Position numbers and translations under genes: made by a program. Below, in pieces: positions 397 through 61,572 of a stretch of DNA of 64,000 nucleotides; positions within the stretch are counted from its first letter, which is position 1; each line of letters starts with the position of its first letter. The notes under the pieces are model-generated. The model ran no database searches, was not told where the DNA came from, and saw nothing but the letters and a program-made list of their open reading frames with translations. This stretch comes from Candidatus Poribacteria bacterium WGA-3G (GTDB lineage: Bacteria > Poribacteria > WGA-4E > WGA-3G). Location of the stretch: assembly GCA_000406005.1 (NCBI GenBank), contig ASZN01000014.1, positions 11,309 through 75,308 of the forward strand, given 5' to 3'.

Positions 397-604
397 ATTA
401 GGACTTACGCAGTTGGTTCATTAAGACCCACCGATAATAGGGATTTAGGGGTTTAAAAATCAAAATCTCCGATTAAGTCCTAATTCACCCTAAACTTTTT
501 TAGTTTCATCTCTATACTTAATATATGAAGATGGCTCATAAATCATCGCGAATCAGTGTAAACATTTTGGATCGTCTTCTGTTAATAGCATTAGGACTTA
601 CGCA
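397..604. repeat. three copies of ATTAGGACTTA(CGCA) in the 610-bp region upstream of the ECF gene
   Basis: Direct copies of ATTAGGACTTACGCA lie at 397-411 and 590-604, each a few nt after a -10-like hexamer (TATAAT 386-391, TAATAG 583-588). An inverted copy, TAAGTCCTAAT, lies at 474-484. Confidence 0.6.
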
Positions 605-867
605 ATTTATAAAAATATCGCTTGTCGGCGGGAACTCCGAAGGGCATGTAAATATTTTGTCAAAATTGGGGATGCCTGAGTCTTAAAGATGATACAAGTC
701 ACTGATGTGATACCCCTCGCGCCATTATCAATGAGCATGAAGAAAACGAATCCGGCAACATCGCTGGAACATCTGAATAAATATATAAACACGCTCTTAT
801 TTTTTTTCTGATTATGCACCGATTTGACCCTTAACAAGCGTCACTATAGGGTAATCGGAGGTGATTT

Positions 868-2883
868 ATGAAAAATATTGATGTTGAACTTATCCACCGT
901 GTTCTTGATGGTGATGATACTGCCTTCAGTGAACTTGTGAAAAAGTACCAAAAGCCGGTTCACGCGCTTGTGTGGCGTAAGGTTGGAGATTTCCACATCG
1001 CCGAGGAGATTACACAGGATACATTCCTAAAGGCATATCAGGGATTGGCAACGCTGAAAAAACCGCAGAGTTTTGCGAGTTGGCTTTATGTGATTGCTGC
1101 GAATCACTGCAGCACGTGGCTGCGTAAAAAGCGTCTACGGACACAATCCCTTGAAGAAACGAGCAGCGCGCAGTTAGAAAAGGCAACGTACTCGGGATAT
1201 GTCATTGAAGAGAACGAACAGACAGCGGTAGAAACCCGACGCGAAGCTGTCAAACAATTGCTTGCGAAACTCCAAGAGAGTGAACGTACCGTCATCACAC
1301 TGCATTACTTCGGTGAAATGTCCAGTGTAGAGATTGGGGCGTTTTTAGGTGTATCGGAAAATACGATTAGGAGTCGCCTCCGCCGTGCGCAACAGCGTTT
1401 AAAGAAGGAGGAGCCGATGATTCGAGAGGTTTTAGAAAATTTTCAAATCACATCGCATCTCCCGGAAGACATCATGCGAGAGATTTCACGTTTGAAACCT
1501 GCAGTTCCGTCCGGCGGTAGACCGCTGGTACCTTGGGCGATCGCTGCTTCTACGGTAGCCTTAATATTTGTGATGTTAGGTGCCAGTAATCAATACTTAT
1601 CGCGTTTCCAAAAACCGTATAGTTTCGATGCGATGTCAGAGATGACGATTGAATTAATTGAAGCCCCAGTCGTGCTAAACCTTGCGGCCAAACCGGACGT
1701 GCGGAATCAATTCGGTAATGCGGATACAAGAAATAAAAACAGTAAGGTCAACCAGAAACCTGACGCAACTTTATTTCCTTCTGCCTCCGGTCATATTCTT
1801 GATGAAGCGGGGGAACCGGTATCCGGGATCAAGATAGCCGTTACACCTGTTGTAGATGGCAATGGTGCTTGGTTCCGGATTCGAGAACGCAACTCCGCGT
1901 CATCTCAAGCGGAAAGCGATGCAGCGGGTCATTTCACTATCACCAGCGTTATTGATGGTCCCGTGCTATTGTCACTATTTCCATTCCACAGATCGGATGT
2001 CCGAATTTTAAAAGTTCAAATCGGAGCATCATTTTTTTCTCCGAGTGGAATGGGCGATCGTGGAATTGTGTTTGCCACGAGTCCGGGGAGACGTATTGAA
2101 AACATTAAAGTAATCGTACAACACCCACACATCCGTGGAAGGGTGCAGTATACAGACGGAACACCCATCGTCAATACGAAAGTCAAGCTCCGTTTACGAA
2201 CAGTGAGTTTATACGGAAATTCTTCCAGCGATGGGAGTGCTCGGACAGATGCCGAAGGGTACTTTACGCACTATACCGAGAGGGATTTGGAGGTACCAAC
2301 ATTTTATATGCTGTCTGTCGGACATCAGACACAGACGGTGAATGCAAAACCGATTATTCTTAAACCCGGCGATCAAACCCACGAGGTTATTTTCACGTTT
2401 GAGACTATGCCAGAGCGGCCTTTACCTGCACGGCATCCCGGATTCGCAAGAGCGTCGGCTTCAACAAGTTCCCGTGCGCATAATGTATGGGTCGTCAGTC
2501 CAGAAAATGGGCATGCTTACAAAAAAATTCAATGTGAGGATTGGGAAGACGCTCAAGCCCAAGCTGCTGCCGAAAGTGCGTATCTCGTTACAATTAATGA
2601 CGAAACGGAACAGAAATGGCTGCAAGTCGTTTTGGGGGGTGAACCGAGTTGGATTGGACTTAACGACATCGCGCAAGAGGGACAATGGATCTGGGACAAC
2701 GGCGAACCGGTCACCTACACAAACTGGGGACTTCAAGAACCCGGTGATACCCGTATCGGAGCAGAGGATTATGTTATTATAGGGCCTTCAGGGAAATGGG
2801 AAGACTTTGGCTCCGGACATGGCGGAATATCCCTAATTCGGACGGCACTGATTGAGAAAGAAAATTTGCCGGTGAAGCAGTAA
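868..2883 (+). CDS. ECF-type sigma-70 factor fused to a TM helix, CarboxypepD_reg-like beta-sandwich segments and a C-terminal C-type lectin domain
   Basis: Single 671-codon ORF with a GGAGGTG RBS. Sigma region 2 reads DTFLKAYQ..WLYVIAANHCSTWLRKKR and the region 4 HTH reads ERTVITLHYFGEMSSVEIGAFLGVSENTIRSRLRRAQQRL. One TM helix (PWAIAASTVALIFVMLGA). Two G-x-V/I-x-D-x-x-G-x-P ... TD/SD-A-x-G-x-F segments. CTLD signature WIGLNDIAQEGQWIWDNGEPVTYTNW. Confidence 0.85.
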   Translation: MKNIDVELIHRVLDGDDTAFSELVKKYQKPVHALVWRKVGDFHIAEEITQDTFLKAYQGLATLKKPQSFASWLYVIAANHCSTWLRKKRLRTQSLEETSSAQLEKATYSGYVIEENEQTAVETRREAVKQLLAKLQESERTVITLHYFGEMSSVEIGAFLGVSENTIRSRLRRAQQRLKKEEPMIREVLENFQITSHLPEDIMREISRLKPAVPSGGRPLVPWAIAASTVALIFVMLGASNQYLSRFQKPYSFDAMSEMTIELIEAPVVLNLAAKPDVRNQFGNADTRNKNSKVNQKPDATLFPSASGHILDEAGEPVSGIKIAVTPVVDGNGAWFRIRERNSASSQAESDAAGHFTITSVIDGPVLLSLFPFHRSDVRILKVQIGASFFSPSGMGDRGIVFATSPGRRIENIKVIVQHPHIRGRVQYTDGTPIVNTKVKLRLRTVSLYGNSSSDGSARTDAEGYFTHYTERDLEVPTFYMLSVGHQTQTVNAKPIILKPGDQTHEVIFTFETMPERPLPARHPGFARASASTSSRAHNVWVVSPENGHAYKKIQCEDWEDAQAQAAAESAYLVTINDETEQKWLQVVLGGEPSWIGLNDIAQEGQWIWDNGEPVTYTNWGLQEPGDTRIGAEDYVIIGPSGKWEDFGSGHGGISLIRTALIEKENLPVKQ

Positions 2884-2914
2884 GTTTTATGTTCTACGCA
2901 AAAGGAGAAAAATT

Positions 2915-4273
2915 ATGAAACGTTCATCCTACACAAAAGGTTTTTCTTTCTTAATAACAGTTGTTTCGCTTTTCATCGGCTTCGGTTCACAGAGCATTGC
3001 TGCGGAAGAGGAGACAGGAACTTTCTCTGGACGCGTTGTCGATGTAGAAGGGAATCCGGTTGCAGAGTTACCCGTTATGATTGGCCCCACGATGCCTATC
3101 GGACCCGGGATTCGATCTGCTTTCTTCCCAACGAATTATCCGACGACGCGACGCGCCCTCACAGATGCAGACGGACGGTTTTCCATTACAGGTATCGCCG
3201 CAAGGATGTCGTACTTCAGTGCACTCCCGCGTAACGTGGATGTACTGTTTCCAAAGGATCTTGAGGCGAAAATTGCGAAGGCTATAGAAGAGAAGGATTT
3301 CGCTGCGATACACACGAGTCGTGTTACAGAGATGGAAAGGGACGATTTTGAACCCGACTTTGAGGTTATATCTATTGACATCCGCGGTATAACCTTCTAT
3401 CCGCGTAATGATTTTAGTCGGATCGGGTTTAGTGTTGAACGGGGGTCGCATATTAAAAACGTGAAAGTCATTGTGCAACCTCGGATGCGGATTCGGGGAC
3501 GTGTTCTTTTCAAAGACGGGACACCGCTCCGCAACGCGCGGCTCCGCCTCGGTCTCAATTACATTCGTGAAGATGGACAGGGACACGGAAGTTCAGGCGG
3601 AAAACCCCGAACAGATGCTGATGGCTACTTTCTCTTTTATTTAGACGAGAAAGACGATACTGCAAACTACACATTTTCGGTGGAGTACCAAGAAGTTGAG
3701 GCGACGGCTGGCCCTGTGCTTCTTAAGCCCGGGGATCGACTTGATGGACTCACTTTCACTTTTGACAGCGAACCGATTGCCCCCAAACCACCTGATAAAA
3801 TGCCATTCAATCCGTCCGCTACGCCACCGGCACCCAAACCTATATCAATTCCAACGTTTGAAACGGTTTGGATCGTCAATCCCACAAATGGACACGCCTA
3901 TAAAAAGATTCCGTGTGAGTCTCGTGACGCTGCTGTTGCCCAAGCGACAAAAGAAAAAGCACATCTCGTCGCGATTAATGATGCTGAGGAGCAGGCGTGG
4001 CTCTCAGCGGTTTTTGGAAATGAGTTCTATTGGATAGGGCTTAGCGATGGAGAAAAAGAAGGACAGTGGCAGTGGGATAACGGCGAACCTGTCACTTATG
4101 AAAATTGGTTACCCGACGATTTCTTTTCTGAATCCGCTAATACTGGTGAAAGAGATTACGCCGTCACGACATTCACAGAGGGGAAATGGTATGCCGTTAG
4201 TCCTAAAAGTATACTCTTGCGAATGACTGCGATGGCGATCCTTGAAAAACCAGATATGCTTGATAGGCAATAA
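2915..4273 (+). CDS. secreted CarboxypepD_reg-like / C-type lectin protein, paralogous to the sensor part of 868..2883
   Basis: AAAGGAG RBS and a signal peptide (FLITVVSLFIGFGSQSIAAEE). Contains GRVVDVEGNPV..TDADGRFSITGI and IRGRVLFKDGTPLRNARLRL..TDADGYF. CTLD signature WIGLSDGEKEGQWQWDNGEPVTYENW. Confidence 0.8.
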   Translation: MKRSSYTKGFSFLITVVSLFIGFGSQSIAAEEETGTFSGRVVDVEGNPVAELPVMIGPTMPIGPGIRSAFFPTNYPTTRRALTDADGRFSITGIAARMSYFSALPRNVDVLFPKDLEAKIAKAIEEKDFAAIHTSRVTEMERDDFEPDFEVISIDIRGITFYPRNDFSRIGFSVERGSHIKNVKVIVQPRMRIRGRVLFKDGTPLRNARLRLGLNYIREDGQGHGSSGGKPRTDADGYFLFYLDEKDDTANYTFSVEYQEVEATAGPVLLKPGDRLDGLTFTFDSEPIAPKPPDKMPFNPSATPPAPKPISIPTFETVWIVNPTNGHAYKKIPCESRDAAVAQATKEKAHLVAINDAEEQAWLSAVFGNEFYWIGLSDGEKEGQWQWDNGEPVTYENWLPDDFFSESANTGERDYAVTTFTEGKWYAVSPKSILLRMTAMAILEKPDMLDRQ

Positions 4274-4374
4274 TAGTTAGAGTCGGGTGATCTGTTGCCC
4301 GCTGGATGTTTCAGCATTTGAAAAAAGGAATTTACTATGAATCTTCAACGTCTCAGTCTAAAACTTGGCATTTT

Positions 4375-4593
4375 CGTCGCGGTTATAGTATTCTCCTTAG
4401 TGTGTTAACATTCTCACCCGATGGAAAAATCCTTCTCGACCCTAAATCAATAAGTTGGCAACCCCTCATCCAGTTATGGGATGTGGATATTGGCACCGAT
4501 CTCGGCGGAATCCTTTCCGGGCATACGGAAAGCATAGAAACGTTGGTGTTTTCACACGATGGGAAAACCCTGGCAAGCAAAGGAGCAAATATC
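4375..4593 (+). pseudogene. relic 3' end of a third WD40 paralogue, fused in frame to the next gene
   Basis: The translation RRGYSILLSVLTFSPDGKILLDPKSISWQPLIQLWDVDIGTDLGGILSGHTESIETLVFSHDGKTLAS matches the last ~60 aa of both downstream WD40 genes. About 23 codons plus the stop are deleted at the junction. There is no N-terminal part and no credible start. Confidence 0.6.
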
Positions 4594-6627
4594 ATGAAAG
4601 CAAAACACCTATTCTTCATCACTTTTCTATTCGCTGCTGCGATGTTCTCGACCAGTTTCGCACAAGACAATACGAAAGTCGGATTACCTGAGGGTGCCAT
4701 CGCACGACTCGGAAAAGGTGGTATCAATTTGATGCGGTTTTCACCCGACGGTACCCGTCTCGCAGTGGGAACGGATGTCGGCGTGTGGCTATACGATGTG
4801 CCTCATGGCAAAGAGACTGCCCTGTTCACAGAACACCCCGGACAAGTCAATGCACTTGCTTTCTCAACAGATCGAAAAATCCTCGCAAGTGGCGGGTTCG
4901 CGAACCCTGTCATACAACTCTGGAATTTGGAAACTGACAGTAAACTTTCTACCCTAAAATTAGCCGAGAGACACGATTCAATAACAGCATTGGCATTTTC
5001 CGAAGATAACACAATATTGATCAGTTTGGACACATTTGGTGATATTATCTATTGGGATGTGGAGACCGGCAGCAAATTGTTGGATCCAAGGAACGTAGAC
5101 CCCGTAGACACATACGAAGTAGCAGCACTCTCCCAAAACGGTAGCATGGCCGCCATTGGAGACAAAAACGGTACACAAATTCATTTATGGAACACAACAA
5201 CCGGAAGACGACGGGTAACCCTTAATGGACATACAAATTTTTTCAAAGAGGGACCGGATGAAGACGAAAAGGATGCAGACATTCAGGCAATGGCATTTAC
5301 ATCGGACGGAAAAACCCTCGTTAGCGGAAGCGAAGACAAGACAGTACAACTATGGAATACGAACGGTACTAAACGCTCAACCCTCAGAGGGCATCAAGGT
5401 TGGGTTACTACCGTTGCCTTTTCATCTGATGGTGCAATCGTTGCCAGTGGCGATACGAATAAGGTAATCAAGGTATGGGATGTGGACACCGGGCACGAAC
5501 GCGCGACGCTTATAGGACCCAAAAACACCATCAATGCGCTAACCTTCGCTCCCGAAGGAACACCCCTTTATAGCAAGTGTCTTGCCAGTGGCAGCGCAGA
5601 TGGCACAATCCGATTCTGGGATCCAGAGACTGGACAGGAACTGATTACCTTTACTGTGGGACATACAGAATGGGTGAAAGCCGTCGCGTTTTTTGTAGAT
5701 GGAACAACACTTGCGAGTGCTGCGTTCAACGGCACTGTTGAAATATGGAGTCTAATGACCAAGCGGGAACTTATCACATTTACTGCTGGACAAAGCAATT
5801 TAGCCGAGTTAGCCGTATTGTCCCCTGATGGTAAATTCTTCGTGACTCGAGGGTACAACGGTCCAATTGCAATTGCGTTCAATCCGTATGGGTGGGGTGC
5901 CCGTTCTAACCCGAAAGAGCGCGGCAGCATGCAGTTATGGAAAATCACTACTAATGAGCAGCTTCCTGGTCCCTGGCAGAACGTTGCAGATACCACGATA
6001 TCACTCGCATTCTCGCCGGAGAATAAAATACTCGCAAATCGCGGTCCCAAAAATATTCAGGCGTGGGATATGAAAACCAGCATTGAACTGTTCCATCTTA
6101 ACACGGAGAATCCATTTCCAAGGAAGTTGACGTTCTCACCCAATGGAACTCTACTTTGTGTCTACGGCATTCATGGCATCCCAGAGGTATGGGATGTAGA
6201 CGCGCGACGCGAGTTCCCTACATTCACCAACGAACGAGCCTGGAGTTTGGCATTCTCACCCAATAATACTATCCTTGCGCTTGGACATCGGGATAGCATT
6301 ACTTTGTGGGATGTAACGACAACAGGCATGCAGGAGCGCAGCGTAATTCCTGATAATTACCGAGGATTCAGTGATATATTAACATTCTCGCCTGATGGAA
6401 AGACACTCCTGGGTTCTAAATGGGATGGTCTATCTCGAATCCAGTTATGGGATGTGAACACTGGCAGAACTTTAGGAATCCTGTCTGGACATACCGAACC
6501 TATAGAAACGCTGGTGTTCTCACACGACGGGAAAACGCTCGCCAGTGGTAGCGAGGATGGCACAGTACTCCTCTGGGATTGGGACGAAATCATCGCAAAG
6601 CAAACACCTAATGACAAAGGAAATTAA
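4594..6627 (+). CDS. secreted WD40-repeat beta-propeller protein
   Basis: ATG at 4594 is preceded by AGGAG (4581-4585). Signal peptide MKAKHLFFITFLFAAAMFSTSFA/QD. Many WD40-like blades (FSxDGKxLASG....LWD/VWDV). Confidence 0.85.
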   Translation: MKAKHLFFITFLFAAAMFSTSFAQDNTKVGLPEGAIARLGKGGINLMRFSPDGTRLAVGTDVGVWLYDVPHGKETALFTEHPGQVNALAFSTDRKILASGGFANPVIQLWNLETDSKLSTLKLAERHDSITALAFSEDNTILISLDTFGDIIYWDVETGSKLLDPRNVDPVDTYEVAALSQNGSMAAIGDKNGTQIHLWNTTTGRRRVTLNGHTNFFKEGPDEDEKDADIQAMAFTSDGKTLVSGSEDKTVQLWNTNGTKRSTLRGHQGWVTTVAFSSDGAIVASGDTNKVIKVWDVDTGHERATLIGPKNTINALTFAPEGTPLYSKCLASGSADGTIRFWDPETGQELITFTVGHTEWVKAVAFFVDGTTLASAAFNGTVEIWSLMTKRELITFTAGQSNLAELAVLSPDGKFFVTRGYNGPIAIAFNPYGWGARSNPKERGSMQLWKITTNEQLPGPWQNVADTTISLAFSPENKILANRGPKNIQAWDMKTSIELFHLNTENPFPRKLTFSPNGTLLCVYGIHGIPEVWDVDARREFPTFTNERAWSLAFSPNNTILALGHRDSITLWDVTTTGMQERSVIPDNYRGFSDILTFSPDGKTLLGSKWDGLSRIQLWDVNTGRTLGILSGHTEPIETLVFSHDGKTLASGSEDGTVLLWDWDEIIAKQTPNDKGN

Positions 6628-6629
6628 AA

Positions 6630-8672
6630 ATGAAAGCAATACAAATTCTTGGCATCACGTTTCTATTTGCTGCTGCAATGCTCTCAAACAGTTTCGCGCA
6701 AGACAACACGAAAGTCGGATTACCGGAAGGTGCGATCGCACGTCTCGGAAAAGGCGGTATCAATCTGATGCGGTTTTCACCAGACGGGACCCGTCTCACA
6801 GTGGGAACGGATGTCGGCGTGTGGGTATACGATGTGCCGACTGGCGAAGAGATGGCTCTGTTTACGGGACATAAAGGACAAGTCAGCACGCTTGCGTTTT
6901 CATCAGATGGAAAAACCCTCGCGAGTGGTGGATTTAATAATCCTGTCATTCAACTGTGGGATGCGGAAACTGGTAACAAACTTTCAACGCTTCTATCAAC
7001 CGAAAAACACCATTCAACCACAGTATTAGCATTCTCACAAGACAACACAACGCTCATCAGTCTGGATCGGTTTGGCAAAATCATCCACTGGAGTGTTGCA
7101 ACGGGTAAGAGATTGGCAAACAGAAGTAGAAATGTGGGTTCATACGATGTAGTGACAGTCTCTCAGGACGGGAACACCTTTGCTACGGGGAATCAACACG
7201 GTAAAATCTATTTATCGGATTCAACCACAGGTAGACAGTTGGCATCCATCAGGGGACATACCCAACTTTTGGCATCTTTGAAGTCTGTTTTAGGTTGGAC
7301 TGACAGACCTCCGCAAGATGAGGAGGTGCAAGCATTGGCGTTTTCATCAGATGGCAAGATGCTCATGAGCGGCGGCGAAAACAAGATTGTCGGGTTGTGG
7401 AATGTAGAGAAACGCACTAAACATGCCACGCTCAAGGGACATAAGGAGTGGCTTACTGCCGTCGCATTCTCCACTGATGGCAAAACCGCTGCCAGTGGCG
7501 ATGCGGGTAAGGTCATCAAGTTATGGGATGTCGGCACCGGACGTGAACGTGCGACACTTAGAGGGCACAAAAGTACTATCAATGCGCTAACCTTTACGCC
7601 TGATAACGCACCGCTTTATGCCGGATGTCTTGTCAGTGGCAGTGCAGACGGCACAATCCGATTCTGGAATCCGAGCACTGGGCAAGAACTCCTTACCTTT
7701 ACCACAGGGCATACAGAATCGGTGAAAGCCGTCGCGTTCTCGAAAAATGACACAACACTTGCAAGTGCAGCTTTCAACGGGATTGTTGAGATATGGAGCC
7801 TAAAAACAGCACAAGAATTGGCTACTTTTACTAAAGCAGAAAGCGATTTAACTGGGGCAGTCGCCTTTTCGCACGATGCTACGCACTTCGCGATCCGTGG
7901 TGGAAGCGGCGCAATTGCGTTTGATCCGTTAGGCTTCGGAGGTACCGCAAGTGGACCCGGTCCCGGTAACATTCAATTGTGGAATATAGCCACTGGTGAA
8001 CAGATTCCCGGACCTTGGGAGGATGCTGGAGACAACGCGAAAGCGCTTGCATTTTCACCCGATAAGAAGATACTCGTCGCTGATTTTGGTCGTCAAGGTA
8101 TTCGTTCGTGGGACCTAAATACCCGGCTTGAGCTGTTCCACTTTCACACAGCAGAACCGTTTGGAAGGAAGTTTGCGTTCTCACCCACTGGAACTTTATT
8201 CGCTACCAATGGCACGCATGTGCAAACACATGTCTGGGATGTTGACACGCACGCCGAAATCACGCCGCCCAATATCCAAGAAGTTAGTGCCTTGGCTTTT
8301 TCACCGGGCGGCATTATTCTCGCACACGGACATCATCGGGACGGCATTGTTTTCTGGCATGTAACGCCAACAGGCATAAAAGAACACAGCAGAATCCCGA
8401 AGAGTCAGCGCGGGTTTAGCGATGTATTAACATTCTCCCCGGATGGGAAAATCCTTCTTGACCCTAAATTGGATATTTGGGATCCTATCATCCAGTTGTG
8501 GGATGTGGAAACCGGTGAGGAATTGAAGACCCTCTCTGGGCATACGGAACATATAGAAACGTTGGTATTTTCACACGACGGAAAAACGCTTGCCAGCGGT
8601 AGTGCTGATGGCACGGTCCTGCTCTGGGATTGGGAGGCAGTCACCGCGGAGAGGGTGCCAGATAACAAATAG
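6630..8672 (+). CDS. secreted WD40-repeat beta-propeller protein, tandem paralogue
   Basis: Starts 2 nt after the previous stop. Signal peptide MKAIQILGITFLFAAAMLSNSFA/QD. The 5' ~200 nt and the 3' end are near-identical to 4594..6627. Confidence 0.9.
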   Translation: MKAIQILGITFLFAAAMLSNSFAQDNTKVGLPEGAIARLGKGGINLMRFSPDGTRLTVGTDVGVWVYDVPTGEEMALFTGHKGQVSTLAFSSDGKTLASGGFNNPVIQLWDAETGNKLSTLLSTEKHHSTTVLAFSQDNTTLISLDRFGKIIHWSVATGKRLANRSRNVGSYDVVTVSQDGNTFATGNQHGKIYLSDSTTGRQLASIRGHTQLLASLKSVLGWTDRPPQDEEVQALAFSSDGKMLMSGGENKIVGLWNVEKRTKHATLKGHKEWLTAVAFSTDGKTAASGDAGKVIKLWDVGTGRERATLRGHKSTINALTFTPDNAPLYAGCLVSGSADGTIRFWNPSTGQELLTFTTGHTESVKAVAFSKNDTTLASAAFNGIVEIWSLKTAQELATFTKAESDLTGAVAFSHDATHFAIRGGSGAIAFDPLGFGGTASGPGPGNIQLWNIATGEQIPGPWEDAGDNAKALAFSPDKKILVADFGRQGIRSWDLNTRLELFHFHTAEPFGRKFAFSPTGTLFATNGTHVQTHVWDVDTHAEITPPNIQEVSALAFSPGGIILAHGHHRDGIVFWHVTPTGIKEHSRIPKSQRGFSDVLTFSPDGKILLDPKLDIWDPIIQLWDVETGEELKTLSGHTEHIETLVFSHDGKTLASGSADGTVLLWDWEAVTAERVPDNK

Positions 8673-8749
8673 TGGCGGGACCGAACAGTCGAAGATTGGA
8701 TTGAAATATTCGCCGGCGTACGTTATAATCTTTGAAGGAGGTGGTACGC

Positions 8750-9370
8750 ATGGCATTTAGGGATTTTAAGACAATTCCTGAAGTCTTAGAGAGATTCAGG
8801 ATCACCTACACGACAAAAGATTTCGTCCACATTGAGGAGATCCCAGGCACTCCTTCGGAACAGTTTTTGGAAGAATTTGAGTTTTGCCTACAGAATATTG
8901 ACGTTTTTGCATCGGAGGCGGCACGCTGCGAAGCGATTATCTTTCCTGTTTTGAAAGAGATATACAAGGCTTATGCAGAAAACTATGCACTCTGGATAAA
9001 GAAAACCATCACTTACGATGAAACGCTCAACGGAACGCCTGATTATCTTATCTCTACAAGATCCGAATTAGGACTCCCCGTTGTTGGAACACCGTTGATA
9101 ATTCTCGTCGAAGCAAAGAAAAACGATTTCGATCAAGGTTGGGGACAGTGTTTATCCGAACTGGTAGCCGCCCAAAGAATAAATGAGGACACCGATTTTC
9201 CGGTTTACGGCATCGTGAGCGACGGGAAATTGTGGGAATTCGGACAACTTGTTGGTAACACTTTCACCCGAAACAGAACAAGCGTGACGATGGATAACTT
9301 GCCTGTCCTCTTCGGTGCAATTGATGCTGTCTTCAAAGCGAGCACGGAAGCGCGGTCAGAAACCGGCTAA
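8750..9370 (+). CDS. PD-(D/E)xK nuclease-fold protein, HsdR N-terminal-like
   Basis: ATG at 8750 lies behind GGAGGTG, with TATAAT at 8724-8729. Motif GTPDYLIS...PLIILVEAKKNDFDQGWGQCLSELVAAQ gives a D...E-x-K arrangement. The track's start at 8732 is a TTG. Confidence 0.5.
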   Translation: MAFRDFKTIPEVLERFRITYTTKDFVHIEEIPGTPSEQFLEEFEFCLQNIDVFASEAARCEAIIFPVLKEIYKAYAENYALWIKKTITYDETLNGTPDYLISTRSELGLPVVGTPLIILVEAKKNDFDQGWGQCLSELVAAQRINEDTDFPVYGIVSDGKLWEFGQLVGNTFTRNRTSVTMDNLPVLFGAIDAVFKASTEARSETG

Positions 9371-9611: not shown

Positions 9612-10727
9612 TTATACCTCAACTTGTCGAAGATCTGCTTGGTCAAGTGTATTTGTACCTAAACCGAGACTGCTTGCTGTATTGATATGGTTGGCGAATT
9701 TGGATACAGAATCTAAATCCATCTCTTCACGTTTTTGGTTGACCGTCTGGAGTACCAACACATCAAGAATAACGGGGTCAGCACTGATAAAGAGACTCCC
9801 GTATTGCCACGTGCTTTCGGCGTGATATGTCGGTCCTCTATCGAACGAAGCGAGCAATCCATCAACAATATTAAGGGTCAACTTGTCTTTCAGCACCTTA
9901 TGCTCCAAAATCTCACTGATAGCCGGATTGCAATAAATCGGCTTTCCGTGAAACCGACGTGTATTATCGACACTCCCGAACGCGAGATTCTTTAAGCATC
10001 CGCTCACGCCTGCCATGGCGTGGTGCTTCAAGACGGGAACGTTGATGATTACATCGACCTGCTCGGTGACGATTCGGGAGTAACGCGAACGGATACTTTC
10101 GTTCTCACGGCGTGCAAGACTATCCTTCTCGCTCTCATAGTAGACCTCATCGTCATACCCAATTCCGTCCGTATCGGAGGCGAAGGTTTGCACATCGCTC
10201 TCATCTCGCTTGATGGGGTAACCGGCATTTAGGAGGTGCTCCTCAAACCGGTCCCAGATAATAATCTGTTTCCGAAGCACCCCGGCACCGTATAACCCGT
10301 CAACAATTTTATCGACGATGATAGAATGCGTGCTAAGTTCTGGTCCCGCGAGTGGATTAATTTTTATGCCGACAACATCATCGGGTAGCACAATATCTCG
10401 CCACGCCTCTTTCGCGGAGGAACGGCCCGTCAACTTCATCATCGCCTGATCCATCAGTTCACTCACAGCATCTTCATTGAGCTGATCGTTTTCCCACACC
10501 TCTTTACCGATAGCCTCAACGACAGGTGTAAGAGATGCTGCCCCTGTCGTCTCAGGTTGTAATTGCCCGCTACTTAACTGTGCGAACGCCGGGAGCGTGC
10601 TAAGCGCACCACCGGAATATGCGGCAAGTCGGGTTAAGAACTGCCGTCGATTGAGCGATCTTTTGGAATCGGTCGCTTCTTCGCTGTCAGCGATGATATT
10701 TGCTATAACTGTGTCGTGAGGTTTCAT
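9612..10727 (-). CDS. Tat-signal DUF362-like protein
   Basis: Twin-arginine signal NRRQFLTRLAAYSGGALSTLPAFA. VGIKINPL-type core typical of DUF362. The ATG overlaps the upstream TGA stop (TGATGA). Confidence 0.65.
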   Translation of the reverse strand: MKPHDTVIANIIADSEEATDSKRSLNRRQFLTRLAAYSGGALSTLPAFAQLSSGQLQPETTGAASLTPVVEAIGKEVWENDQLNEDAVSELMDQAMMKLTGRSSAKEAWRDIVLPDDVVGIKINPLAGPELSTHSIIVDKIVDGLYGAGVLRKQIIIWDRFEEHLLNAGYPIKRDESDVQTFASDTDGIGYDDEVYYESEKDSLARRENESIRSRYSRIVTEQVDVIINVPVLKHHAMAGVSGCLKNLAFGSVDNTRRFHGKPIYCNPAISEILEHKVLKDKLTLNIVDGLLASFDRGPTYHAESTWQYGSLFISADPVILDVLVLQTVNQKREEMDLDSVSKFANHINTASSLGLGTNTLDQADLRQVEV

Positions 10728-11821
10728 CAAAGTTTACCTAATTCTGTGAGGATTTGCGCTGTTGGTACACGCGCAGCCTTGGTATTCAAAGATTTCCAAG
10801 CGATCGTTCCATCCTTGCGGACGATATAGGCGGCAGGACGTGCTATCCGATTGTTGCCAGGATCGACGACGTTGTAGACAGTGATCGCCTCTTTGTCGTT
10901 ATCCGCCAGGACTGGAAATTTGAGCCCATGGTTTTGAACCGTCTGTTTGGTGTCGCCTTCGTTATCGGAACTGATCGCAATGAGTTCCGCGCCTGCAGCT
11001 TGAATCTTCGCATAGTTCTGTTGCAACTCACCGAGTTGCGTTCTGCAGAAGGGTCACCAGCCGCCGCGGTAAAAAATAAGGACAACGTTTTTATCAGCGA
11101 TATAATCATCAAGGGCGTGCGCTTTACCGGTGCTGTCTGGTAAGACAAAGTCGGGGGCTTGGCTTTCAATACGCAAGCCTTGACCGGGAGGCAGCTCCTC
11201 CGCTTCTGGCACTGGTATGAGTTCGACCGTCAGTTCCAGCGTTTCATCCGCTGGTATCGGATCGACTGCTACCTCTTTGTCTTCGTAACCGGCGTGAGCG
11301 ATCATCAAAGCCATAGATTGCTGCACGGGGAGATTTTCAAAGGTGAAAACGCCTGCTGCTGTTGTTAACGTTTCGTAGATATTCCCTGTGTTATCCGTGA
11401 GTTGGAGACTGACACCGCCAAGCACTTCACCCGTCGTTTCGTTCGTTAAAACGCCGTATAAATGCGAGACTGGCGTTTTCAATGCGACGAGCGTTACCTT
11501 GTCAAGCGATACAACCTCTTCAGCGATGACTGTGACGGCTATCTCTTCCGTTTCATAGCCTTTCGCCGATATCTGGAGCGTATAGCTTCCAGCCTCAATC
11601 TCGCCAATTTCATAACTCGCCTGCGTCTCTATTTGCTTCACAAGTTGTCCATCTTTTAGTAAGCGTACCTGAATCCGTACGCCGTCAATTGATTGGACAT
11701 CGCCACGCAAAGTACCCGTTGTATCGGTTTCCACTGTCTCCTCAACCGGATTTTCAGTTTCACAGCCGAATCCTGCGAACAGTAGTAGCGCAAGCGCGAG
11801 GGGTGCCAGTATGTGTTTCAT
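10727..11821 (-). CDS. lipoprotein selenoprotein: CarboxypepD_reg-like repeats plus a peroxiredoxin-like (AhpC/TSA, Prx-like) domain with UxxC
   Basis: Track ORFs 11054..11821 and 10727..11026 are in the same frame, joined by TGA at 11054-11056. The read-through gives APDFVLPDSTGKAHALDDYIADKNVVLIFYRGGW-U-PFCRTQLGELQQNYAKIQAAGAELIAISSD, which is the FYRGxWCPxC redox motif with Sec at the first Cys. Lipobox FAGFG-C at the N-terminus. Confidence 0.75.
11016..11050 (-). promoter_or_regulatory. bacterial SECIS-like stem-loop
   Basis: The mRNA reads UGA CCC UUCUG cagaac GCAACUC GGU GAGUUGC aa CAGAA. It has a 7-bp upper stem, a GGU apical loop 22-24 nt after the UGA, and a 5-bp lower stem. Confidence 0.5.
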
Positions 11822-52849: not shown

Positions 52850-53493
52850 TTTTCCTCTTTACCTTTGCTCCAACGTTTAGATTGTTGCGTAAGTCCTATC
52901 ATATTCGTTTTTAATAGGACATTGTTGTCCAATTTACCTTTTGATGCTATGAGTGAACCGGGAACCCGTACGTGCAAAAGACTGGGATCTTTAATAGCTT
53001 TAAGCCGTTTCGCTATCGTTAGTTTCGGGACATCTTCGCAGACCATGACCCCCGGTGTGGCACATAGTGATGTATACATCCTAAAAAATGCAACTTGTTG
53101 GTCGTGTATATGTTCGGCATCATCAATCAGAAGATGATAGGGCCCGTGACGGGCGGCATCTTGTACGCCTTGCTCGGTGTATGCGTCAACTTTAAGAAAA
53201 ACGCCTTTCTCCCCAAAATCTTCCTGAATTGGATTTACATCAAGCCCTACAAATTTCTCTACAAACGGCATCTTTGCAAAAGCGTGCCCACTGCCTTCAC
53301 CAAACATAGTGACCCCTATTTCTAAGACGCGTATAGGCTGCATCCTATTTTGAAAAAGAAGCGAGGCAAACAGCCAGTCATACAGGTTTCCATAATCGTG
53401 GCGAACGCCTGTTTTGTCAGAATTAGATTCATCGAAATAAGCTGAAGGTGGTTTCTCTGAAAAACGGTCTACCAAAGATATCTCTGAAGCCAT
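52837..53493 (-). CDS. class I SAM-dependent methyltransferase-like protein
   Basis: Contains RVLEIGV..GEGSG, FVGLDVN and LLIDDAEH. This is a weak motif-level call. Confidence 0.4.
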   Translation of the reverse strand: MASEISLVDRFSEKPPSAYFDESNSDKTGVRHDYGNLYDWLFASLLFQNRMQPIRVLEIGVTMFGEGSGHAFAKMPFVEKFVGLDVNPIQEDFGEKGVFLKVDAYTEQGVQDAARHGPYHLLIDDAEHIHDQQVAFFRMYTSLCATPGVMVCEDVPKLTIAKRLKAIKDPSLLHVRVPGSLIASKGKLDNNVLLKTNMIGLTQQSKRWSKGKEEKCEF

Positions 53494-56973: not shown

Positions 56974-59571
56974 TCAAAGTCTTGGATCGACTGCCTCGCT
57001 CTCGAGTGATAGGATTCCGAAAACACACTCATGAACATGGGATAGCGGTTCACGATGCACGAAACGTTCAAGTGCTTCAACACCTAATGCGAACTCTCGA
57101 AGTGCAAGGGAACGTTTGTGAGAGAGTCCGCGGGAACGGAGACGTGCTAAGTTTTGAGACAACGTATATTCAGGTCCGTAGATTATCCGGAGGTACTCAC
57201 GCCCTCGGCACTTCACTGCGGGTTGTACCAATCCTCGCTTGCCTTGAACAATAAAATCCAGGGGTTTGATGACTATGCCTTCGCCTCCTTGCTCGGTGAG
57301 TTCATCCCATCGGGAGATCGCCTCAGTTTGGCTTTTGTCGTCAGTCACATCAACTACACCGTAGGAGGTTGGGAACAATAGGTTGTTGTCGGAATTTTGA
57401 CAGAGTTTGCTGAGCATTTCCATGTGCCACAGATGGTCTTTGTCGAAGTACACAGCGCCTTCGGTTGCGAGTAGATGAAATGGTGCGAGTTTTAGGTCTC
57501 CGACAGATTCGACGTTCCAACAGTATTGCTGATAAGCCTTGATATACTCGGTCACTGCTGCTGCGCGTTGGCGATAATCATTTAATATAACTTCTACCTC
57601 AACACCGCGTTCGGCAGCAGTTTCTAAGGATGCCACCGCTTCTCCGAGCGCAACACTTGCCGATGTACCTACTGGGGCGTACTGCTGTTTTAACAACTCC
57701 TGTGCCTTAACTGACCACGGCATTAGTTCACAGTCGAGACAGACCCAATCTGTATTGAGGGTTTCCCAATAATTGACTTTATCTATTGCTTCTTTCACCT
57801 GTTTCAACAACTCGGTTTCAATTGCGGTATCTTCAAAGAAACGTCTACCTGTGCGTGTGTAACAGATGCCAAGCGTGTCGTCTGGGATACCAAATCGCTT
57901 TTTTGCGGTTTCTGGTTCTCGGCAAACAATAACGACAGCGCGGGACCCCATGTGTTTTTCTTCCCAAATGAGCTTGGATACACCCTGTTTACGATAATAA
58001 GTGAATGCCTCGGTTGGATGTTCGAGCATCCCTGGTCTGTTTGTTGTTTCGGTTGGGGACATTGTCGGTGGAAGGTATATAAGCCACTTCGGATTTACAG
58101 CAAAACGGCTCATCACTTCCAATGCGTTTATTGTATTCTCTTCACGGATTGTCACATTGTGATGTAATCGTGTGTTGATAACGCGTTTTCCGAGTACATC
58201 ATCAATATTTAGGACATCGTCATACGCTTGTGTTTTGGCAGAAGATTGTTCGTCCGCTTTATCAAGAAGCGGTTTGATGGGTTGATAATACGTCTGGTGT
58301 GCGCGGATAGATACGATTTCTCTTTCAGGGTATCGTAGTGCCGTGAGTTTACCGCCGAAAACACATCCGGTATCAATGTTGATTGTTCGGTTTATCCATT
58401 GCGGTTCTGCGACTGGTGTGTGTCCATAAACGACCGTTGCGGCACCGCGATACTCGTCAGCCCAATTGACCCGAATCGGAAAACCGAATTCATCGGTTTC
58501 TCCTGTGGTTTCGCCATAGAGTGCGAATTCCCGCACGTGCCCTGATGCTCTACCCTGTAATTCTGCCTTCATTCCGGCATGTGCAATGACCAGATTTCCA
58601 CTATCAAGGACGTAGTGGCTTACTAAATTATCTAAGAATTCTGCGACTTGCGTCTTGAATTCGGTAGATTCGTTCTCCAATTGCGCCAGCGATTCCGCTA
58701 ACCCGTGTGTTTGCTTTACGTTTCTGCCGCGAAGCGCACGCACCAGTTTTACGTCGTGATTCCCCGGCACACAGATTGCTGCGCCAGTCTTTTGCATCTG
58801 CATGACGAAGCGTAACACTTCGGGTATCTTTGGACCCCGGTCGACAAAATCGCCGACGAAAATCGCTTTTCTGCCTTGTGGTGGCTCGACAACGGTTTCA
58901 CCGTCTGGCTGCGTTGAGATTTCATAACCGAGTGCTTTGAGCAATTCAATGAGTTCATCGAAACAGCCGTGAATATCACCAATAATGTCAAAGGGTCCGT
59001 GCTCGTCCGTGCGGTTCGTCCATAAGGGTTGGCGTTCCATACGGATGGTATCAACGGCTTCGGGTGTAGACATTACATAAAGGAAGTTCCGAAAACCTTC
59101 ACGTTTGAGGCTGCGCAGTGAGCGGCGAAGTTGTTGGCTCTGTTGACGGACAACATGCGGTTTAAAATTGCGGTCTGGACGTGCCTCGTTTCTTTCTTGA
59201 CAGAGTTTCGTAGGTGTGTTGAACACAATGGCAACGGTTAAGTAGTGGTATTCGCGCGCCAGTGCAATCAAAGGTTTCCGTGCTTCGACCTGAACATTCG
59301 TTGCGTCAATGACGGTCAATTTTCCGGCAGCGAGCCGTTTTGCGGCGATGAAATGTAGCACCTCAAACGCGTCGTTGGTTGCGGTTTGGTCGGTCTCGTC
59401 GTCGGAGACAAGCCCTCGGCAGAAGTCTGATGAAAGAATCTCAGTCGGTTTAAAATGCTTATGTGCAAAGGTAGACTTCCCTGAACCTGAGGGTCCAATA
59501 AGGAGGACTAGCGAAGGTTCAGGAATTTTTATTTTTCCGCGCGGCTCTGAATTTTGAGAAGCATTGGACAT
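56974..59571 (-). CDS. pnkp: polynucleotide kinase-phosphatase (kinase, metallophosphoesterase and ligase-like adenylyltransferase domains)
   Basis: 865 aa. P-loop LLIGPSGSGKST. Phosphoesterase motifs GDIHGC, GDFVDRG and GNHD. C-terminal EEKHMGSRAVV nucleotidyl-transferase region. Confidence 0.9.
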   Translation of the reverse strand: MSNASQNSEPRGKIKIPEPSLVLLIGPSGSGKSTFAHKHFKPTEILSSDFCRGLVSDDETDQTATNDAFEVLHFIAAKRLAAGKLTVIDATNVQVEARKPLIALAREYHYLTVAIVFNTPTKLCQERNEARPDRNFKPHVVRQQSQQLRRSLRSLKREGFRNFLYVMSTPEAVDTIRMERQPLWTNRTDEHGPFDIIGDIHGCFDELIELLKALGYEISTQPDGETVVEPPQGRKAIFVGDFVDRGPKIPEVLRFVMQMQKTGAAICVPGNHDVKLVRALRGRNVKQTHGLAESLAQLENESTEFKTQVAEFLDNLVSHYVLDSGNLVIAHAGMKAELQGRASGHVREFALYGETTGETDEFGFPIRVNWADEYRGAATVVYGHTPVAEPQWINRTINIDTGCVFGGKLTALRYPEREIVSIRAHQTYYQPIKPLLDKADEQSSAKTQAYDDVLNIDDVLGKRVINTRLHHNVTIREENTINALEVMSRFAVNPKWLIYLPPTMSPTETTNRPGMLEHPTEAFTYYRKQGVSKLIWEEKHMGSRAVVIVCREPETAKKRFGIPDDTLGICYTRTGRRFFEDTAIETELLKQVKEAIDKVNYWETLNTDWVCLDCELMPWSVKAQELLKQQYAPVGTSASVALGEAVASLETAAERGVEVEVILNDYRQRAAAVTEYIKAYQQYCWNVESVGDLKLAPFHLLATEGAVYFDKDHLWHMEMLSKLCQNSDNNLLFPTSYGVVDVTDDKSQTEAISRWDELTEQGGEGIVIKPLDFIVQGKRGLVQPAVKCRGREYLRIIYGPEYTLSQNLARLRSRGLSHKRSLALREFALGVEALERFVHREPLSHVHECVFGILSLESEAVDPRL

Positions 59572-59610: not shown

Positions 59611-61017
59611 TTATTCATCAATTTTTCGGGTAAAGACTGCCATTTGTGTTGGCGACCCGACGTTTTCAGCCTCCGGTCCGATTGGATGGAACACAACGGT
59701 GTAGCCGAAGCGTTCAGTAACATCTATTGCCCAAGACTGAAATTCGTCGCGTGTCCACTCGAAACGATGGTCTTTGTGCCGAAATTTCCCCGCCTGCAGA
59801 TTCTCAAATTTGACGTTGTATTCTATGTTTGGTGTTGTCACCACAACCGTCCGAGGACAAGCAAACTCGAACAGGACTCGCTCAAAAACCGCGAGTCGTG
59901 GCAATTCCAAGTGTTCAATGACTTCTACCACAGCGGCGGCATCGTATCCAGTCAAGCGTTTATCTCGATACCCGAGCGATCCTTGGAACAAGCGAATCCG
60001 TTTTTTTTCTTTCTCTGCTAACCTGTCATAATGGAGTCGTTCTTGTGCGATTTTCAGGGCGCGATGTGAAACGTCCATTCCGACGATTTCTTCAAACTGC
60101 TTTTCGGCTAATAATTTACGAAGTAGTTTCCCTTCGCCACACCCCAAATCAAGAACGCGTTTCGCGCCGGACTGCCTGAGCATCTCAGTCACCGTAGTTA
60201 AACGGATATTGTTTAGACCGATCTGTCCTTCAACTTCAGTTTCTTCTTGTGCTTGCGTTGCTTCATCAGCCTCTTGTGCATCTTCTTCGCGCAATTGGGC
60301 GAGTGCCTCATGTGTAAGGTGTCGTTGATGTTTCAAGTAGCGACGGGCAATGGATTCTTGTTCTGGATGCTCAGCGAGCCAATCCTCACCATGTTTTAAG
60401 AGTTTTTCGATCTCCGCCTCACCGACCCAGTAGTGTTTCTCGTCGTCAAGTACAGGCATCAAAATGTAAAGATGCGTGAGGAGTTCGCTCAAGCGACAGG
60501 TATTCTCGAGTGCCACAGAAAAATAACGGCTTTGTCCCCAATCTGGGAAGTGTGGGTTCAACATATATTGTTCTGCTGTTACTGTATAACCGAGTGGCTC
60601 GAAAAGTTGTCGCAACAGTTTCTCTCCGCCGCGACAGGGCAAGATGGATAATTCTGCCTTTAAAGGGATCGGGGTATCAACGAGTTGTGGTCGATCTTTG
60701 CATTTGCCGGACAACGCGGTGCTAAAGACGCGCGCGACTGCGACGCTCAAAAACGAGGAAGCGACGTAAGGACGGTCGCTAACGTATTGCGCGAGGGCGA
60801 AATTTTCTGCGAACCGCCCGTGAGGACGGCGGACAAGCGCGACCGGATCGACATCAAGGAGGAGTGCTGCGGTGCATTTTTCGGTGCGTGCCTCTGGGTA
60901 GAAGACGTGTGCTTGTCCAAAAGCAAGTTCAAAGGATTGAATCCGCGCCGGATGTTTATGCAGCAGATAGCCGAGGTCTGTCGCCGGAGAATATGTGGTT
61001 GATATTGTCAATAGCAT
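59611..61017 (-). CDS. hen1: bacterial Hen1 3'-terminal RNA ribose 2'-O-methyltransferase
   Basis: N-terminal MLLTISTTYSPATDLGYLLHKHPARIQSF..AHVFYPEA..CTAALLLDVDPVALVR. SAM motif VLDLGCGEGKLL. Directly upstream of pnkp. Confidence 0.9.
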   Translation of the reverse strand: MLLTISTTYSPATDLGYLLHKHPARIQSFELAFGQAHVFYPEARTEKCTAALLLDVDPVALVRRPHGRFAENFALAQYVSDRPYVASSFLSVAVARVFSTALSGKCKDRPQLVDTPIPLKAELSILPCRGGEKLLRQLFEPLGYTVTAEQYMLNPHFPDWGQSRYFSVALENTCRLSELLTHLYILMPVLDDEKHYWVGEAEIEKLLKHGEDWLAEHPEQESIARRYLKHQRHLTHEALAQLREEDAQEADEATQAQEETEVEGQIGLNNIRLTTVTEMLRQSGAKRVLDLGCGEGKLLRKLLAEKQFEEIVGMDVSHRALKIAQERLHYDRLAEKEKKRIRLFQGSLGYRDKRLTGYDAAAVVEVIEHLELPRLAVFERVLFEFACPRTVVVTTPNIEYNVKFENLQAGKFRHKDHRFEWTRDEFQSWAIDVTERFGYTVVFHPIGPEAENVGSPTQMAVFTRKIDE

Positions 61018-61116: not shown

Positions 61117-61189
61117 TGTGACGTTTAATGTGACGTTTTAAACGTCACAGTGACGTGCATAAGTCAAGTGACACGCGGGAATGTGACGT
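61117..61189. promoter_or_regulatory. array of six TGTGACG(T)-type boxes, including a 21-bp palindrome
   Basis: Boxes lie at 61117-24, 61129-36, 61142-49 (inverted), 61149-56, 61167-74 (variant) and 61182-89. The palindrome TGTGACGTTTTAAACGTCACA lies at 61129-61149. Confidence 0.45.
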
Positions 61190-61572
61190 GATTTTCGTTT
61201 TTTCGATTTAGACTTATCCGTTCTATTTGATTTTTGCTGGGTGTTTTATCCTATGTTTTGAAATATACCAAAAACAGATTTTTTCTGCCGAAAAGATACC
61301 AAAGCAAATGTAATATTTGGGTTGCTACGGATTTTATGCAAGATATTTTCAAACTTATTTTTAGTATAGTATAATTATACTATTTTTTCGCGCGGGTGTC
61401 AAATCTTTTTTCGGTTTTAAGAAATTATCGGGTTGTCCTTTTTTCACTCTGGGCATCAGTTAGCAAAATTTGTTTTAAACCCTAAAAAGCAGTATAATAG
61501 AACCAATCTTTCTTGTCCAACACATTGCACGAAAAAATATGATTGAAATCTTTCTCGGAGGACGTTGTAAAA

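Follow-up and report, generated by a model that had tools for sequence, protein, structure and literature searches.

In cellulolytic clostridia, the SigI/RsgI pairs have paralogous membrane sensors with different carbohydrate-binding outer domains; sigma release involves proteolysis at and within the membrane, sigma and anti-sigma are not part of one protein, and promoter specificity differs from pair to pair. SigW and RpoE are both released by regulated intramembrane proteolysis, their partners (RsiW and RseA, respectively) being separate single-pass anti-sigma factors that are cut at site-1 and site-2. Fusions of a sigma factor to a membrane sensor have also been described. IutY of Pseudomonas putida, an extracytoplasmic function (ECF) sigma/anti-sigma hybrid of group ECF243, is a fused sigma-transmembrane protein that is activated by Prc and then by RseP (PMC8999054). 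It has a FecR-type anti-sigma domain and a periplasmic domain, and works together with a TonB-dependent transducer (see the review PMC8999054). SCO4117 of Streptomyces coelicolor (ECF52) has a ZAS domain, transmembrane (TM) helices, a Pro-rich region and a carbohydrate-binding domain, and its release by proteolysis has been proposed (PMC8999054, PMC5826349); ECF48 and ECF53 are predicted to work like ECF52 (PMC8999054). In the Planctomycetes, duplicated, highly similar sigma2/sigma4 modules carry unrelated C-terminal extensions (Pinto & da Fonseca 2020, PMC7671368), and ECF57 of this phylum has WD40 extensions and two conserved Cys residues able to link sigma2 and sigma4 (PMC8999054). The principle of a sigma factor fused to a membrane sensor, and probably released by proteolysis, is already established. 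Here we describe such a fusion in a 64,000-nt stretch of DNA from Candidatus Poribacteria bacterium WGA-3G (contig ASZN01000014.1), referred to as the window, to which all unlabelled coordinates belong. Its gene, open reading frame 1 (ORF1), joins an ECF sigma factor through a single TM helix to an outer part that ends in a C-type lectin-like domain (CTLD), and it is one member of a large family built on a common cassette.

An earlier reading of the window, made from the sequence alone (the sequence-only reading), had described ORF1 as one uninterrupted 671-codon frame encoding an ECF sigma factor, a single TM helix and an outer part ending in a CTLD. The ORF list, Pfam, NCBIfam and hydropathy all bore this out. 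The features of ORF1 and its immediate surroundings are as follows (pLDDT, predicted local distance difference test).

798..849, + strand: family promoter-like motif upstream of ORF1 (recognized by enrichment and fixed spacing among paralogues)
857..861, + strand: Shine-Dalgarno sequence GGAGG of ORF1 (read from the sequence)
868..2883, + strand: ORF1, membrane-tethered ECF sigma factor with a CTLD-containing outer part (ATG start, uninterrupted, 671 aa)
934..1134, + strand: sigma region 2, residues 23-89 (Pfam PF04542, E 5e-14; near-invariant in 130 paralogues)
1243..1410, + strand: sigma region 4, residues 126-181 (Pfam PF08281, PF04545)
1411..1521, + strand: cytoplasmic linker, residues 182-218, EEPMIRE..NFQIT..L.E.IMREISRLKP..PSGG.P (conserved in paralogues)
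1522..1590, + strand: single TM helix, residues ~219-241, LVPWAIAASTVALIFVMLGAS (the only place where a 19-residue Kyte-Doolittle window exceeds 1.5)
1591..1719, + strand: outer juxtamembrane stalk, residues 242-284, NQYLSRFQKPYSFDA.SEMT.ELIEAPVVLNL..KPDVRNQ.G (conserved across all ectodomain classes)
1720..1782, + strand: variable low-complexity spacer, residues 285-305 (paralogue homology ends here; pLDDT <50)
1783..2412, + strand: two beta-sandwich domains (CarboxypepD_reg, DUF6795-like), residues ~306-515 (Pfam; AlphaFold2 pLDDT 70-90)
2479..2880, + strand: CTLD, residues ~538-671 (Pfam Lectin_C, E 6e-13)
2915..4273, + strand: ORF2, a free paralogue of the ORF1 outer part with signal peptide, CarboxypepD_reg and CTLD, 452 aa (ORF list, Pfam, hydropathy)

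When ORF1 was compared with Pfam, the four domains named in the sequence-only reading (Sigma70_r2, Sigma70_r4_2, Lectin_C and CarboxypepD_reg) were all matched. Sigma70_r4_2 was found at residues 126-177 (E 6e-13) and Sigma70_ECF at residues 7-181. With regions 2 and 4 present and no match to region 1 or 3, ORF1 is an ECF (group 4) sigma-70 factor. In NCBIfam, the ECF superfamily model TIGR02937 (sigma70-ECF) scored 98.9 bits (cut-off 42.9), whereas all specific ECF equivalogs stayed below their cut-offs, the best being PRK12513 (105.8 versus 206 bits); the SigW model reached 98.2 of 209 bits. The nearest solved sigma factors to the ORF1 core were SigW (E 1e-23) and E. coli sigmaE, which is of the RpoE type (E 1.7e-17). 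In the outer part, CarboxypepD_reg was matched with 37.8 bits (cut-off 32.3) and occurs as two stretches, DUF6795 was matched below threshold, and Lectin_C covered residues 558-646 with 49.9 bits against a gathering score of 22.6. This part had been called extracellular. If the Poribacteria are diderm, as is assumed here, its default location would be the periplasm.

No anti-sigma domain was detected in ORF1 or its neighbours by Pfam (E <= 0.1) or NCBIfam, and no anti-sigma chain was found in the PDB at E <= 10 with a profile of the linker-TM-stalk segment, in agreement with the earlier statement that no ZAS or other anti-sigma domain or gene is adjacent. The linker has no Cys, and residues 1-181 have one (C81). 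The lone PDB match of the linker-TM-stalk profile at E <= 10 was the Notch3 TM peptide 8os0 (E 0.0085), the resembling part being the TM segment KPLLPWA...LLLGVG (window 1513-1590; profile positions 41-64). Notch is a classic substrate of intramembrane proteolysis; we read the match as TM-helix composition, not homology. The N-terminal module was also modelled by AlphaFold2 (AF2; residues 1-300, 39-sequence alignment), with a pLDDT of 47.5. At low confidence, this model has a TM helix at residues 222-242 and two short helices in the linker, at 182-190 and 198-207. The stalk of ~45 residues was unstructured (pLDDT <35) and, when tested for an RsgI-type autoproteolytic SEA-like domain, gave no Pfam or PDB match.

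ORF1 is like IutY in being a single polypeptide with an N-terminal ECF sigma factor, a membrane span and an outer sensor part (PMC8999054). It differs from IutY in having no FecR-family match or anti-sigma, in its outer part of beta-sandwiches and a CTLD, and in the many copies of the family per genome. With ECF52 it shares a TM helix followed by an outer domain, here a CTLD for which carbohydrate binding is putative. ECF52 is actinobacterial and has a zinc-finger anti-sigma, whereas ORF1 has no ZAS, no zf-HC2 match at E <= 0.1 and not the corresponding Cys/His pattern; moreover, ORF1 has a single TM helix and a linker and stalk that are specific to its family. The Planctomycete ECF factors are similar to the ORF1 family in their duplicated, similar sigma2/sigma4 modules, unrelated extensions and common WD40 repeats, but in the Poribacteria, a different phylum, the duplicated unit also includes the linker, the TM helix, the stalk and a promoter motif. 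Unlike ECF57, the sigma core of ORF1 has one Cys (C81), not two. In contrast to SigI/RsgI, a single chain holds both sensor and sigma factor, and paralogues hardly differ in their sigma cores; unlike SigW/RsiW and RpoE/RseA, whose sigma cores are the closest solved ones, ORF1 has no anti-sigma domain.

In a homologue search of 5.8 billion proteins, more than 60 full-length homologues of ORF1 were found (46-97% identity, ~100% coverage, same Pfam architecture). They came from many independent assemblies, and the named ones were Candidatus Poribacteria. A genome scan gave 369 ORF1 relatives, of which the best 14 loci were orthologues (62-97% identity) in Poribacteria metagenome-assembled genomes (MAGs), complete chromosomes included. 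The orthologue was intact in 12 of these 14 loci, among them complete long-read chromosomes. In L007 (7001-9013), which is 97% identical to ORF1, there is an in-frame stop at codon 559, just before the CTLD; in L014 (7001-9635), the orthologue is split by an insertion of ~570 bp after codon 362. Both lesions, the only irregularities found, lie downstream of the sigma-TM junction, and they are either sequencing errors in long-read MAGs or signs of ongoing gene loss. The sigma-CTLD fusion is a genuine, conserved single polypeptide, old and vertically inherited.

ORF2 starts after a gap of 31 nt that contains a Shine-Dalgarno sequence and no terminator-like site, and ORF1 and ORF2 are probably co-transcribed. 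Its N-terminus is signal-peptide-like and it shows 34% identity to the ORF1 outer part, as expected for the signal-peptide paralogue of the sensor part that had been noted at this position. An ORF2 orthologue (55-96% identity) directly follows the sigma-CTLD gene in all 14 orthologous loci. In most of them, the pair lies inside a tandem array of free CarboxypepD_reg+CTLD paralogues; L001, for example, has five upstream and several downstream. Up to ~10 such free signal-peptide paralogues surround the sigma-CTLD gene in L001:1-15535, L002, L005, L006, L008 and L012, and they are 29-56% identical to ORF2. The window is colinear with L007 from 759 to 4398 at 97.2%, while the flanks differ on both sides; therefore, the conserved unit is the promoter, ORF1 and ORF2. 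The window genome has lost or moved the array of CTLD paralogues, the homology to L007 ending at 759 and 4398.

The sequence-only reading had described ORF1 with one free paralogue. ORF1 is not an isolated fusion but one member of a cassette family that extends throughout the Poribacteria. Dozens of loci matched ORF1 only at residues 1 to ~300, at 64-79% identity, and 165 copies of this N-terminal module were found in 77 loci of ~15 kb, often with up to four in tandem on the same strand. When 130 copies were aligned, conservation was strong from residue 1 to ~285, followed by a short low-complexity spacer and then a complete loss of similarity. The cassette of ~285 aa thus comprises sigma2-sigma4, a 38-aa linker, the TM helix and an outer stalk of ~45 aa. 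Conservation of the linker across the 130 paralogues was 8-9 out of 10, equal to that of the sigma core. The stalk consensus was ...RFQKPYSFDA.SEMT.ELIEAPVVLNL..KPDVRNQ.G, with Q248, P250 and Y251 invariant. The back-translated pattern DFHIAEE..QDTF matched at least 120 stretches, and the named ones among the matches listed were Poribacteria. OX639973.1, the genome closest to that of the window (L007, 97%), has at least 11 cassette copies. Among named loci, the family is seen only in Candidatus Poribacteria. Truncated or disrupted copies and remnants are common. An odd copy was observed in L048 (10204-11577), where a sigma module (59% identical) is joined directly to DNA_pol3_beta (DnaN; E 7e-21) with no linker-TM-stalk; this may have arisen by misassembly or else by an unusual insertion of the cassette.

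The linker-TM-stalk segment alone (109 aa) was used for a HMMER scan of 1.84 billion representatives. Clustered at 50% identity, the matches formed 248 groups, of which 196 reached E <= 1e-10, and in essentially all full-length matches the segment was located at residues ~182-290, directly after the sigma factor. Stand-alone, anti-sigma-like versions of the segment were considered and rejected: the apparent cases start at an internal Met184 or Met203, and the one inspected (P0181 in L078) is a truncated copy from which sigma2 is deleted. Consequently, no free-standing anti-sigma version was found.

The ectodomains that follow the cassette are of several unrelated kinds. Clustering was done with 147 sequences, made up of 144 fusion ectodomains and ORF2-ORF4 of the window. 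The classes obtained were BNR/sortilin propellers (59), WD40 (49), CarboxypepD_reg+CTLD (15) and a Big_5-like type of ~690 aa (12), the remainder being a ~160-aa domain with no known type and rarer types. ORF1 and ORF2 fell into the CTLD class, and the free WD40 proteins of the window into the WD40 class. Sigma-module identity was 0.69-0.75 between ectodomain classes and 0.67-0.84 within them; the sigma-CTLD group is coherent, with a mean of 0.84. These identities fit an old sigma-CTLD fusion in a family in which selection or exchange maintains the uniformity of the modules. The homology between ORF1 and ORF2 begins at residue ~307 of ORF1 and residue 38 of ORF2, just past the signal peptide of ORF2. 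The free WD40 proteins of the window are 36-40% identical over their full length to the WD40 ectodomains of sigma-fused paralogues, and this homology begins at residues ~19-24 of the free proteins. Since the homology to free paralogues begins right after their signal peptides, the cassette occupies the signal-peptide position, and its TM helix would do the export.

A promoter-like motif is present upstream of most family members. At ORF1 it begins with a T-tract (798-807), after which come the block ATTATGCAC(C) (811-820) and, beyond a 19-nt spacer (820-838), the second block, GCGTCACTATAG (838-849); in short form it reads ATGCAC-N19-CGTCAC at 814-844, with CGTCA 29 nt before the ATG of ORF1. 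Of 140 upstream regions, 86 contained the 7-mer GCGTCAC and 72 the 7-mer TTATGCA, compared with ~4-5 expected, an enrichment of 14-20 fold. The consensus anchored on CGTCA was (C)AGAATTATGCACC-N-GCGTCACTATAG, the information being concentrated in the two blocks. The spacing TGCAC-19 nt-CGTCA was kept in 39 of 45 cases, and the distance from motif to ATG took two fixed values, 29 or ~53 nt. In orthologues at 62% protein identity, the blocks were retained while the spacer had diverged. A strict regular expression gave 79 matches in the 77 loci (~1 Mb), of which ~63 immediately preceded a sigma-fusion gene, and the motif is nearly confined to these genes. In ECF promoters, CGTC is typical of the -10 element, and we infer that the ORF1 sigma factor reads the shared motif.

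Within the window, 814-844 is the only good site. The sequence-only reading had proposed a search for an ECF -35/-10 motif upstream of 868, 2915 and 4594; the family motif lies before 868 and is absent before 4594 and before 6630. When the family promoter was tested as a possible driver of the free CTLD paralogues, CGTCA was found in only 2 of 42 upstream regions. A second strict match in the window, at 61160 (- strand), was dropped as a target: it lies inside a cluster of ACGTCAC repeats before Hen1 RNA-repair genes. These repeats (61120-61200, - strand) are upstream of 59611..61017, which encodes a Hen1-type RNA-repair methyltransferase (Hen1_L, E 2e-115); the 865-aa ORF 56974..59571 beside it may be the Pnkp partner, and the cluster looks like an operator of another regulator rather than the sigma-family motif. 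It may be noted that a dispersed repeat, ATTAGGACTTACGCA, occurs at 397-411 and 590-604 (+ strand) and at ~52883-52897 (- strand). The first two copies lie in the 610-nt non-coding stretch upstream of ORF1, and the reverse complement is found upstream of a CTLD paralogue in another Poribacteria genome (L004, near 5310).

We then consider what the outer part of ORF1 may sense. The AF2 model of this part was confident for the two beta-sandwiches, while the long-loop region of the CTLD had pLDDT <50; the binding site was therefore read from sequence alignments and not from the model. Foldseek related the outer part to pilin/adhesin-like Ig folds and to the lectin domain of CD23 (TMt ~0.5). By phmmer, the CTLD matched PLA2R, DEC-205, mannose receptor, CD23, SP-D, DC-SIGN and MBP-A, and 129 CTLD sequences in the PDB matched at E <= 1e-3. 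The CTLD signature, which had been called canonical, is so in part. ORF1 shares WIGL, WxW and the acidic long-loop positions (EPxD...ED...WED) with metazoan CTLDs such as the mannose receptor family, CD23 and the collectins, and E-P-x-D, E-D and W-E-D are almost invariant in orthologues at the Ca2+/sugar-site positions. In contrast to the metazoan domains, the EPN/QPD motif is changed to EPG, and residues 538-671 have kept a single Cys out of the canonical four, both CTLD disulfides being absent. The ORF1 ectodomain as a whole has many invariant positions among orthologues and is clearly under constraint. Sugar binding by the ORF1 CTLD may be possible; glycan sensing, as claimed earlier, is doubtful, given the EPG(D) replacement and the missing disulfides. 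ORF2 lacks the whole site. It had been proposed as a decoy or co-receptor, which is speculative: it is always adjacent and probably co-transcribed, but because the EPxD/WED positions are lost, a decoy role for the same Ca2+-dependent ligand appears unlikely. Diversification of the CTLD by a diversity-generating retroelement was also considered and rejected. The CTLD-coding DNA matched only the ORF2 CTLD (66.5%), with no template-like repeat, and no reverse transcriptase turned up among the annotated neighbours, the ORFs of the window having been scanned in part.

Taken together, we hold it somewhat better than an even chance that ORF1 is a one-polypeptide transmembrane sigma factor that is freed by regulated proteolysis and then activates the shared family promoter. 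At the inner membrane, the sigma factor would be kept silent or at a distance from the nucleoid. A signal at the outer part, namely a ligand or partner binding to the CTLD/beta-sandwich region, would expose the conserved stalk to a site-1 cut, after which an RseP-type site-2 protease would cut inside the TM helix, which contains Pro, Gly and Ser. The freed sigma factor, with its linker trimmed or not, would direct RNA polymerase to ATGCAC-N19-CGTCAC promoters, among them those of its own ORF1-ORF2 transcription unit and of the paralogous genes. With sigma2 and sigma4 almost unchanged from one paralogue to the next, a variety of sensors would converge on a single promoter specificity. Release by proteolysis, already suggested by the sequence-only reading, is favoured because of the kinship with SigW and RpoE and the precedents of IutY and ECF52 (PMC8999054), and is the most economical explanation. 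The terminator-free gap between ORF1 and ORF2 was also counted for it.

Several points weigh against this proposal. Every mechanistic step is inferred, and the protease, the cleavage site and the processed fragment are putative. The linker of ~38 aa is too short for a class I anti-sigma domain and matches none, so that the proposal gives no account of how the tethered sigma factor is kept inactive, and its docking on the sigma domains could not be read from the AF2 model of the N-terminal module at a pLDDT of 47.5. The 19-nt spacer of the motif is longer than is usual for ECF promoters. A sigma70-like reading, TTGACC-N15-TATAGG, overlaps the motif, which could be read by another sigma factor, and its conservation could partly reflect co-duplication with the gene. 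Finally, EPN is replaced by EPG(D), with no EPN or QPD, in the CTLD of ORF1, and 2 of the 14 orthologues (L007 and L014) are disrupted.

The first alternative is that the sigma factor is active while tethered, in the manner of ToxR or CadC: the outer domain would change the oligomeric state or conformation, and the protein would recruit RNA polymerase to nearby DNA with no cleavage. Membrane-bound one-component transcription activators are established in other bacteria. In ORF1, there is no anti-sigma domain and nothing that obviously blocks core binding, and the ~38-residue linker could serve as a flexible tether. However, a module for recognition or cleavage by a protease better accounts for the strong conservation of the stalk and of the Pro/Gly/Ser TM helix, pro-sigmaE and pro-sigmaK show no activity as long as they are associated with the membrane, and IutY, the characterized fused example, needs proteolysis. 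We regard action in the tethered state as unlikely, if still the strongest competitor of proteolytic release.

Slightly less likely still is a second possibility, in which the linker itself would serve as a minimal inhibitor within the chain (a class II-like short anti-sigma or an ECF41/42-type extension) that is relieved by a conformational change across the membrane, whether or not proteolysis follows. The linker is as conserved as the sigma core, it always comes directly after sigma region 4, and two short helices were predicted in it at low confidence. C-terminal extensions are the second most common mode of ECF control (PMC7826278). Against such an inhibitor, no solved anti-sigma chain is similar at E <= 10, the AF2 model is too poor to show docking, and one TM helix alone is poorly suited to pass on a conformational change.

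A third explanation would see the fusions largely as by-products of a sigma cassette proliferating before the genes of secreted proteins ('gene sequestration'), with the outer domain as an anchor or passenger and not a sensor. The signal peptides of several unrelated protein classes have been replaced, sigma modules from different classes are as identical to each other as those from one class, copies are often truncated, disrupted or reduced to remnants, and an odd DnaN fusion exists in L048; an analogous process is known from the Planctomycetes (PMC7671368). This explanation appears improbable to us: the sigma-CTLD gene is full-length and intact down to 46% identity across many lineages, has kept its ORF2 partner and its promoter, and has clearly constrained ectodomain residues with many invariant positions. 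A chimeric assembly or a frameshift as the source of the sigma-sensor join can be dismissed, because the more than 60 full-length homologues come from independent assemblies, the 14 loci in Candidatus Poribacteria MAGs are syntenic and 12 of them are intact, and ~250 clusters share the identical junction position.

Two WD40 genes follow ORF2 on the same strand. Their features are as follows.

4401..4578, + strand: remnant, final WD40 blade left over from a lost paralogue (DNA 76% identical to 8423-8597)
4594..6627, + strand: free WD40 propeller with signal peptide, 677 aa (Pfam, hydropathy; listed as ORF 4306..6627)
6630..8672, + strand: free WD40 propeller with signal peptide, 680 aa, 59% identical to the preceding one (ORF list, Pfam)

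The two signal-peptide WD40 propellers of the sequence-only reading are thus present, with a correction to the start of the first. The remnant is in frame with the gene that follows it, so that ORF 4306..6627 looks 96 codons too long, and the true start is almost certainly the Met at 4594. The remnant is a deletion or recombination scar among repeated genes. The sequence-only reading had described the WD40 genes together with ORF1 and ORF2. Synteny in the 14 orthologous loci upheld the position of ORF2 but not that of the WD40 genes, an ORF3-like WD40 gene being found downstream in only two of them (L010 and L013).

Directly after the WD40 genes lies a 212-aa ORF (8732..9370, + strand) with no Pfam or NCBIfam match; L011 has a relative (30% identical) that precedes the sigma-CTLD gene and is encoded on the other strand. 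Further on, the ORFs 11054..11821 and 10727..11026 (window 10727..11821, - strand) can be read as one gene through an in-frame TGA at 11054-11056. The context is ...FYRGGW-TGA-PFCRTQL..., which places the TGA at the first Cys of a CxxC in a redox domain that by eye is thioredoxin- or peroxiredoxin-like, and this domain is preceded by a signal peptide and two CarboxypepD_reg domains. The gene probably encodes a selenoprotein (UxxC). A possible selenocysteine insertion sequence (SECIS) element is the inverted repeat GCAACT-CGGTG-AGTTGC, which begins 14 nt downstream of the TGA.

In the literature, we found no paper on a CTLD-tethered sigma factor or on this Poribacteria family. The main text of the ECF classification makes no mention of Poribacteria, lectin or WD40 (Casas-Pastor 2021, PMC7826278), and single-cell genomics of Poribacteria described abundant WD40 proteins with TM helices or signal peptides, sigma factors being unmentioned (PMC3909097). 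New here are a cassette that has a conserved stalk but no anti-sigma domain, a promoter common to the family, an expansion on this scale and ectodomains of eukaryote-like type.

A wider and more tentative picture, which we consider unlikely, is that the Poribacteria possess a network of many receptors with one sigma specificity. At least 10 tethered sigma factors per genome, with near-identical DNA recognition, would act on one self-amplifying promoter, and their eukaryote-like outer domains (WD40/BNR propellers and CTLD) would form a Notch- or SREBP-like repertoire for cues from the host sponge or the community. The anti-sigma domain would be dispensed with, the stalk would be a new universal site-1 module, and the free secreted paralogues would be partners or modulators.

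It seems that any secreted protein can be made into a transmembrane sigma factor by this compact, portable cassette of promoter, sigma factor, linker, TM helix and stalk, which a single symbiont phylum has employed repeatedly. If the mechanism is true, the family would represent a minimal one-polypeptide design of a sigma-receptor, useful to synthetic biology, and a natural system in which the convergence of many inputs onto one promoter specificity may be studied. It would also give a functional context to the 'eukaryote-like' WD40, BNR and CTLD proteins that have long been known from sponge symbionts.

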